Source: Escherichia coli
GTDB taxonomy: Bacteria > Pseudomonadota > Gammaproteobacteria > Enterobacterales > Enterobacteriaceae
Strand: one strand, 5' to 3'
Assembly: GCF_003334335.1 (NCBI RefSeq)
Contig: NZ_QOWQ01000066.1
DNA: 9,411 nt
Notes under the pieces: generated by a model
The model's database searches: none
The model's input: the letters and a program-made list of their open reading frames with translations, nothing else
Told to the model about the DNA's origin: nothing
Shown: positions 4,006-4,045 of the stretch, piece after piece
Layout: every line of letters begins with the position of its first letter
How positions within the stretch are numbered: position 1 is the stretch's first letter
Made by a program: the position numbers and the translations under genes

Positions 4006-4045
4006 TTCATCACCGATATTCATACATCTGAATATCGGTGATGAA
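4006..4045. repeat. Perfect 17-bp inverted repeat (ttcatcaccgatattca / tgaatatcggtgatgaa) with 6-bp loop, between convergent genes
   Basis: Arms 4006..4022 and 4029..4045 are exact reverse complements; loop 4023..4028 (tacatc). No flanking T-run on either strand, so not a canonical intrinsic terminator. Could act as a bidirectional stem-loop or a protein-binding palindrome. Confidence 0.7.

Follow-up and report, generated by a model that had tools for sequence, protein, structure and literature searches.

The closest described systems are the replication origins of the PICI islands and the crr region of phage P4, and the layout of an initiator-helicase gene with opposed repeats and an AT-rich stretch is already known from both. 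In E. coli a PICI origin has been shown to be functional for EcCICFT073, where it adjoins the initiator gene and has opposed sets of repeats with an AT-rich stretch (PMC6092414). The "primase" of the int-alpA-prim PICMI satellites is marked by two Pfam families, of which DUF3987 is one, and deletion of the prim gene of PICMI115, which may belong to either family, lowers replication (PMC10803314). A PriCT-DUF3987 protein of superfamily 6 is, in vitro, a 5'-3' helicase that needs both its Walker A and its Walker B motif (PMC11724360). In the papers retrieved no origin is described for DUF3987 helicases, and a literature search on yfjI, the DUF3987 gene of the island treated here, gave nothing functional.

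The window, by which we mean the whole analysed stretch of 9,411 bp, matches an E. coli chromosomal island at 99.5% identity, and the RefSeq annotation was projected onto it (Table 1). The 200-aa protein encoded downstream of alpA has no match in PHROG and shows only 36% identity to its sister-island counterpart despite conserved synteny; it is a fast-evolving partner. A small ORF on the minus strand at about 2000–2137 is hypothetical here, and is represented in sister islands by a Hha/YmoA-family gene or an hha pseudogene. An imperfect overlapping palindrome (5620–5655, 20 nt, 85%) precedes the annotated start of yfjI (5589) by a short distance and may be a regulatory site for this gene. The only match in the window to the Rfam 15 covariance models at E ≤ 1 is IS102 RNA (RF00124) at 7808–8044, between the GTPase gene and agn43 (67.8 bits, E = 6e-10). 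It is overlapped by a perfect, GATC-rich 12-bp inverted repeat (7806–7817, AAACGATCGATA, and 7838–7849, TATCGATCGTTT), and this is probably where the Dam/OxyR phase variation of agn43 is controlled. The window has no evident primase gene, and an island with Ag43, GTPase and IS elements such as this one may be replication-defective; both points count against a replication origin at the palindrome described below.

Table 1. Features of the window, and perfect inverted repeats located after the stop codon of yfjI homologues in other species
Feature	Position	Strand	Remarks
Zinc-ribbon genes	left end of window		projected RefSeq annotation
Inovirus-Gp2-family gene	692–1261	-	projected RefSeq annotation
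AlpA-like helix-turn-helix excisionase/regulator gene	2880–3086	+	
Hypothetical gene, 200 aa	3181–3783	+	3' of alpA and facing yfjI
Decayed 3' fragment of a gene paralogous to the alpA-downstream hypothetical gene	3860–3973 (approx.)	+	about 37 codons, internal stop
Third exact copy of TTCATCACC	3974–3982	+	outside the hairpin, 32 bp upstream of the left arm
Perfect palindrome, putative YfjI-binding/origin core	4006–4045		17-bp arms, 6-bp centre TACATC
Outer 9-mer TTCATCACC, left arm	4006–4014	+	proposed recognition motif, core TCAYC
AT-rich inner palindrome, candidate melting region	4015–4036		GATATTCA-TACATC-TGAATATC, 27% G+C
Outer 9-mer TTCATCACC, right arm	4037–4045	-	inverted
yfjI, DUF3987, predicted MCM-like AAA+ helicase	4105–5589	-	494 aa, stop 4105–4107
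C-terminal winged-helix domain of YfjI, inferred DNA-binding module	4192–4407	-	residues ~395–466
GTPase gene, then agn43	beyond yfjI		projected RefSeq annotation
L021, Kosakonia			arm 17 nt, loop 6 nt; geometry identical to the E. coli palindrome
L025, Siccibacter			arm 13 nt, loop 8 nt
L029, Rugamonas			arm 16 nt, loop 4 nt
L042, metagenome-assembled genome (labelled WOR-1)			arm 14 nt, loop 10 nt
L046–48, Variovorax			arms 21–23 nt, loop 4 nt; three related species, not independent
L056, Dechloromonas			arms 21–22 nt, loop 1–3 nt
L077, Rickettsiaceae metagenome-assembled genome			arm 13 nt, loop 10 nt

The longest local inverted repeat of the window is the palindrome, and its arms at 4006–4022 (TTCATCACCGATATTCA) and 4029–4045 (TGAATATCGGTGATGAA) are 17 nt each and 100% complementary in an inverted-repeat search, with a loop of 6 nt between them. 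At the composition of the window, chance would produce about 1.1e-5 perfect 17-bp repeats with loops of 0–20 nt, and in 30 shuffles of the window the longest stems were 7–11, so that a preliminary description of the sequence was right that a 40-bp element with two exact 17-bp arms is unlikely to be fortuitous. The stem is AT-rich with 6 of its 17 pairs being G+C, and the G+C content at approximately 4000–4100 is 34–36% as compared to 50% for the whole window, with 27–36% in the centre of the palindrome and the 60 bp that follow. The same description placed the element between two convergent 3' ends. Convergent genes do flank it, and the distance to the yfjI stop is 59 nt, but the gene on the plus strand ends at 3783, which is 222 nt before the palindrome, and the gene relic lies in between. 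This relic ends with ...LYAC*, as does the intact gene of the sister islands, and is a scar of allele replacement in the island. An ORF of 71 codons with a TTG start (3790–4005), with its stop one base before the palindrome, was judged to be probably spurious; its product is rich in Pro, Arg and His, its frame differs from that of the relic, and it is not annotated in RefSeq.

A palindrome at this place could act in the RNA, and in this unlikely but live alternative the transcripts of yfjI (minus strand) and/or of the alpA operon (plus strand) would enter the 17-bp stem, which would serve as a barrier to 3'-end exonucleases or as a weak, factor-assisted bidirectional terminator. The position between convergent genes favours it, as does the very stable stem that is predicted on both strands, with -27.2 kcal/mol (z -6.7) for the plus strand RNA and -28.6 kcal/mol (z -5.3) for the minus strand RNA; the DNA itself folds with -17 kcal/mol (z -7.4). 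A standard Rho-independent terminator is rejected, in line with the earlier remark that a T-run is missing, since neither strand has a U-tract 3' of the stem (plus strand tail ATCCCCATAA, minus strand tail CTAAAGCTCA), the 17-bp stem has only 6 of 17 G+C and is far longer than usual terminator stems, and only the 6-nt loop fits. The terminator scan, which demands a G+C-rich stem followed by T, detected no terminator-like site at the palindrome, and none of the Rfam 15 models matches it. An RNA hairpin is further weakened by the 222 nt that separate the element from the stop of the intact plus strand gene, by the third copy of TTCATCACC outside the stem, and by the lack of the element in an island variant that has the alpA operon and lacks yfjI. 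The bidirectional stem-loop that had been suggested is thus stable on both strands, but without a U-tract and with a negative scan.

The distribution of the element was determined with a 60-mer around the palindrome against 5426 complete E. coli genomes, and it was found in 1179 of them, 78% being without it. All matches are chromosomal and in an unannotated intergenic spacer, with the 3' junction of yfjI as the single context; the three matches labelled as plasmid are in records of 1.4–4.9 Mb. Each genome has 2–6 matching places, corresponding to 1–3 loci because a palindromic locus is matched on both strands. There was no match in the phage collection, and one contig matched in IMG/VR. Identity among the copies in the 1179 genomes is 90% or more throughout and 99% or more for nearly all of them; the arms show almost no variation, and the two sampled variants with 98% identity differ outside the arms. 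The whole junction together with this allele class of yfjI is present in approximately 1176–1178 genomes, in agreement with the 1179 for the palindrome, while the sister class of yfjI (90–95% identity, 686 genomes) does not have it. The palindrome is also absent from the island variant without yfjI, though the gene downstream of alpA is 96% identical there. The single context, the 1–3 loci and the co-occurrence with one yfjI allele therefore indicate that the element travels with yfjI, rather than with the alpA operon, and is not a dispersed repeat of the REP/BIME type, which answers the earlier question of whether it is found elsewhere. Terminal inverted repeats of a transposon or MITE were also considered and rejected, as there are 6 bp between the arms and one genomic context. 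In some E. coli the yfjI allele is fused to or interrupted by an IS30 transposase (protein P0030, 100% identity over half of the protein), so that some strains, at least, can do without the gene.

The suggestion that the palindrome marks a junction between island segments does not hold, since the homology to other island variants breaks at about 3803–3806 and about 4180–4189, that is 200 bp and 135 bp away from it. The same breakpoints speak against a recombination site, which belongs to a very improbable group of explanations where the palindrome is either the operator of another island regulator, for example the 200-aa or the AlpA-like protein, or serves in recombination, transfer or packaging (as oriT, as pac, or as the target of a Gp2-like nickase). 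Perfect dyads are commonplace among the sites of dimeric DNA-binding proteins, and in K-12-like islands the spacer past yfjI doubles as the upstream region of the Gp2-like gene. Against this, 40 bp is unusually large for an operator, the scan found no promoter-like site adjoining the palindrome, and the Gp2-like gene is located 2.7 kb away in the window and is absent near most of the loci with repeat arrays that are described below. An association with the Gp2-like gene was rejected for the same reason, as it applies to the K-12-like enteric loci only. The earlier proposal of a regulator-binding operator nevertheless comes closest to the reading we favour in that the palindrome would be a protein-binding DNA site, but the likely binder is the neighbouring helicase YfjI in the role of a replication initiator and not a regulator of transcription.

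The outer nine nucleotides of each arm, TTCATCACC, occur in exactly three copies in the 9.4-kb window, all of them here and with spacings of 31–32 bp. One copy faces the other two, an orientation to be read with the small number of copies in mind and with the motif having been picked after the data were seen. The density of TCAYC peaks at the palindrome, with 8 in 135 bp being the maximum of the window for a motif that was defined post hoc. The TCACC core is common to the sister alleles, which have the same YfjI winged-helix domain, the homology break at 4180–4189 corresponding to residue ~469 where the disordered tail starts. L003 has the inverted repeat CCGTCACCC-N12-GGGTGACGG and ETEC4075 has CGTCACCA-N15-TGGTGACG, both with the TCACC core retained, and the spacing from core to core varies between the alleles, 22 versus 16–17 bp, which argues against a rigid dimeric binder. 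STEC1575 carries a symmetric double substitution, C to T in one arm and G to A in the other, and a symmetric double change (C to A and G to T) also distinguishes the alleles of L003 and ETEC4075; the dyad is kept in both cases.

These comparisons bear on three readings. For the RNA hairpin it is favourable that in the sister alleles another, shorter hairpin occupies the position aligned with the palindrome, and that the two symmetric substitutions keep the pairing. In the ancestral layout the convergent genes are separated by about 120 bp, and one inverted repeat lies midway in this spacer, a classic place for a bidirectional terminator or a hairpin that protects 3' ends, and this counts against an origin. 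The symmetric substitutions fit a hairpin of RNA or DNA, or template switching from arm to arm, just as well, and thereby weaken the origin reading. Quasipalindromes in E. coli are known to be corrected by such arm-to-arm copying, and we consider it improbable, though less so than an operator of another regulator, that the palindrome is neutral, that is an imperfect ancestral repeat which was perfected by intrastrand template switching and then spread clonally with the island allele. Such copying would likewise yield symmetric changes, the gene relic in the spacer shows recent rearrangement, and with the 1179 copies being nearly all at least 99% identical the perfection could be young, in which case it need not reflect selection. 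On the other hand, three E. coli alleles that have diverged in sequence all retain the dyad, and many unrelated lineages of the gene family carry inverted repeats or iterons at this position (see below), which argues for selection on the class and against a neutral palindrome.

YfjI belongs to Pfam DUF3987 (E = 1.6e-95) and is assigned as "DNA helicase" in PHROG. A Walker A-like SGERKT, where G76, R78 and K79 are invariant, and a Walker B-like SDEAG, with S184 and E186 nearly invariant, are found across 72 homologues. The AlphaFold model based on the alignment of these homologues has a mean pLDDT of 88.8, and in a fold search the predicted structure matched MCM and the Cch protein of SCCmec, with a sequence identity of only about 12%; a sequence search of PDB gave no solved relative. 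The prediction for YfjI is thus an AAA+ helicase of the MCM type that carries a winged helix in its C-terminal part. A comparison of the recognition-helix residues of the winged helix with the iteron cores of the 72 homologues is confounded by phylogeny. 

To see what follows the gene in other species, homologous loci were collected with the YfjI alignment, by protein similarity only and with one genome per species. This gave 80 loci with 25–55% identity, from Enterobacterales to alpha-, beta- and deltaproteobacteria, and the DNA after the stop was scored for 74, with 708 control windows drawn from the same loci. Within 150 bp past the stop, 11 of the 74 loci have a perfect inverted repeat with arms of 10 bp or more (loop 3–14), as compared to 5 of the 708 control windows; none was seen in 740 shuffles. 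Four or more non-overlapping copies of a 6-mer within 200 bp past the stop occur at 27 of 74 loci versus 33 of the 708 control windows, and upstream of the homologue gene at 11 of 74. The long repeats (Table 1) begin 1–75 nt past the stop and have sequences that are unrelated between lineages. Among the three Variovorax species the flanks have diverged and the palindrome has not changed, indicating conservation of the sequence as would be expected for a protein site.

At the homologous loci the repeats consist of short iterons in convergent arrays, in many cases with a period of 9 bp, and their cores are mostly GCTA or GCGA. In Nitrosomonas eutropha (L040), just past the DUF3987 gene, perfect arms of 32 nt at 5496–5527 and 5664–5695 are built from the 9-bp unit TTAGCAATT and flank 136 nt of AT-rich DNA, and this is the clearest origin-like architecture in the DUF3987 family. 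Paracoccus nototheniae (L070) has two tandem modules of 72 nt, 5449–5520 and 5601–5672, where three 9-bp iterons face three, and arrays similar to these two are present at L072, L076, L080 and L045. The cores of the two L070 modules differ, GCTATT in one and GCGATT in the other, as though a single element had two specificities. In the Dechloromonas locus (L056) a separate 11-bp hairpin is located ahead of the palindrome, and similar ones were seen by eye in L040 and L046, and the palindromes there are therefore probably not terminators. An RNA hairpin is unable to explain periodic iterons, arms that are 136 nt apart or arms that are preceded by a hairpin of their own. A P4-type integrase gene is found at 27 loci, and in 26 of them it lies 1.4–3.6 kb upstream of the helicase gene, on the side opposite to the repeats, and the arrays are therefore not arm-type sites of the integrase; such sites were also rejected for the E. 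coli palindrome, which is internal to the island. A Gp2-like gene is not found nearby at most of the array-bearing loci.

The enteric loci are less uniform. The enterobacterial clade does not have the clear 9-bp iteron arrays of the alpha-, beta- and deltaproteobacteria, and this, together with the palindrome having only three copies of its motif, counts against an origin in E. coli. The enteric loci L023 and L061 have canonical terminators, with a G+C-rich stem and a T-run, 24–27 nt past yfjI, and the hairpin of the present island could therefore be a simple 3'-end element, which is a further point for the RNA alternative. Past the terminator of L023, GTTAAT was seen by eye three times in an AT-rich stretch. 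In the K-12-like loci (L007–L014 and L020) an 11-bp inverted pair, CAGTCATCGCA ... TGCGATGACTG, is located at about +80 to +210 past the yfjI stop; it is conserved, with the two halves approximately 105 bp apart around AT-rich DNA, and could be an origin or a promoter/operator of the Gp2-like gene.

With the palindrome adjoining a helicase gene, and relatives of this gene carrying inverted repeat arrays at the same place, the most likely function is that of a YfjI-binding or origin site of a CP4-type island, to which we would give nearly even chances. This putative assignment, which would cover a working origin core as well as the remnant of one, is based on the anatomy of the palindrome, its position at the 3' end of yfjI, the prediction of a helicase fold with a winged helix, and the recurrence of repeats in the homologues. 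The C-terminal winged helices of YfjI would recognize the outer TTCATCACC motifs and the third copy 32 bp away, two helicase rings might then assemble head to head on the dyad, and the AT-rich centre with the adjoining stretch of 34–36% G+C would be the part that melts.

More generally, and with somewhat greater reservation, we propose that the DUF3987 helicase genes of int-alpA-type islands and satellites may be followed by a widespread and hitherto undescribed class of origins, from Alpha- to Deltaproteobacteria. Such an origin would be found downstream, within approximately 25–75 bp of the gene, as convergent iterons (often of 9 bp, with a GCTA or GCGA core) or as a perfect palindrome of 13–23 bp; these sites would be read by the winged helix of the helicase, and double hexamers may be loaded on the dyad. 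If the site in E. coli is what we suggest, the abundant CP4-44/CP4-57-like islands, which carry Ag43, toxin-antitoxin and defence cargo, gain an identifiable module of helicase and origin, with bearing on island amplification after excision or on behaviour as phage satellites, and the palindrome would be the first candidate cis-site for DUF3987 helicases. If the class as such is real, the sequence alone could be used to predict the origins of PICMI-like satellites as well as those of the "cryptic" E. coli islands of the CP4 type, and the latter may still be competent for replication. The finding is ordinary if the palindrome is only a 3'-end hairpin.

Compared to known systems, the palindrome is like the REP/BIME elements in being an intergenic, hairpin-capable palindrome at gene 3' ends, but it has 1–3 loci per genome, is found in the island context only and is absent from 78% of E. 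coli. With Rho-independent bidirectional terminators it shares a strong stem-loop on either strand and a location where two 3' ends converge, and it differs from them in having no U- or A-tract beside it and a 17-bp AT-rich stem in place of one with 5–12 bp that is G+C-rich. The Cch protein of SCCmec is an MCM-like helicase of a mobile element with a fold that matches the predicted fold of YfjI, although the sequences are only about 12% identical, and no defined origin for Cch was retrieved from the literature. In the palindromic core origins of viral hexameric-helicase initiators, namely site II of SV40 large T antigen and the E1 site of papillomavirus, short inverted recognition motifs surround a dyad on which two helicase rings are probably loaded head to head, next to an AT-rich region; these initiators belong to SF3 and have another origin-binding domain, and the analogy concerns the mechanism only.

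Phage P4 has its type-1 iterons (TGTTCACC) directly 3' of the alpha gene and in both orientations according to the P4 record. They contain the TCACC core that is also present in the palindrome motif, and CP4-type islands are P4-like. P4 has, however, 10 iterons in two 120-bp repeats where the island has a single perfect palindrome, and YfjI shows no detectable similarity to alpha, with a best BLASTP E-value of 0.65 and no P4 match in a tblastn search over the phage collection. As this test of homology failed, the palindrome was not assigned to the alpha/crr type, and P4 was kept as a positional analogy only. The PICI and SaPI origins, those of EcCICFT073 and of the staphylococcal SaPIs, differ from the present locus in that YfjI is a DUF3987 protein without a primase domain in the same polypeptide, that yfjI is inverted relative to alpA, and that the island has three motif copies in sets that abut around a 6-bp centre as a hairpin-capable palindrome, with an origin role that is putative. 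What the locus has in common with them is an int/alpA-type island backbone, a site that adjoins the helicase-type initiator gene of the island, here with 59 nt between the palindrome and the stop of the predicted helicase gene, and an AT-rich stretch, possibly together with short repeats in two opposed sets, though with few copies of a motif chosen post hoc; the AT-rich stretch has 34–36% G+C at approximately 4000–4100 and 27% in the inner 22 bp of the palindrome.
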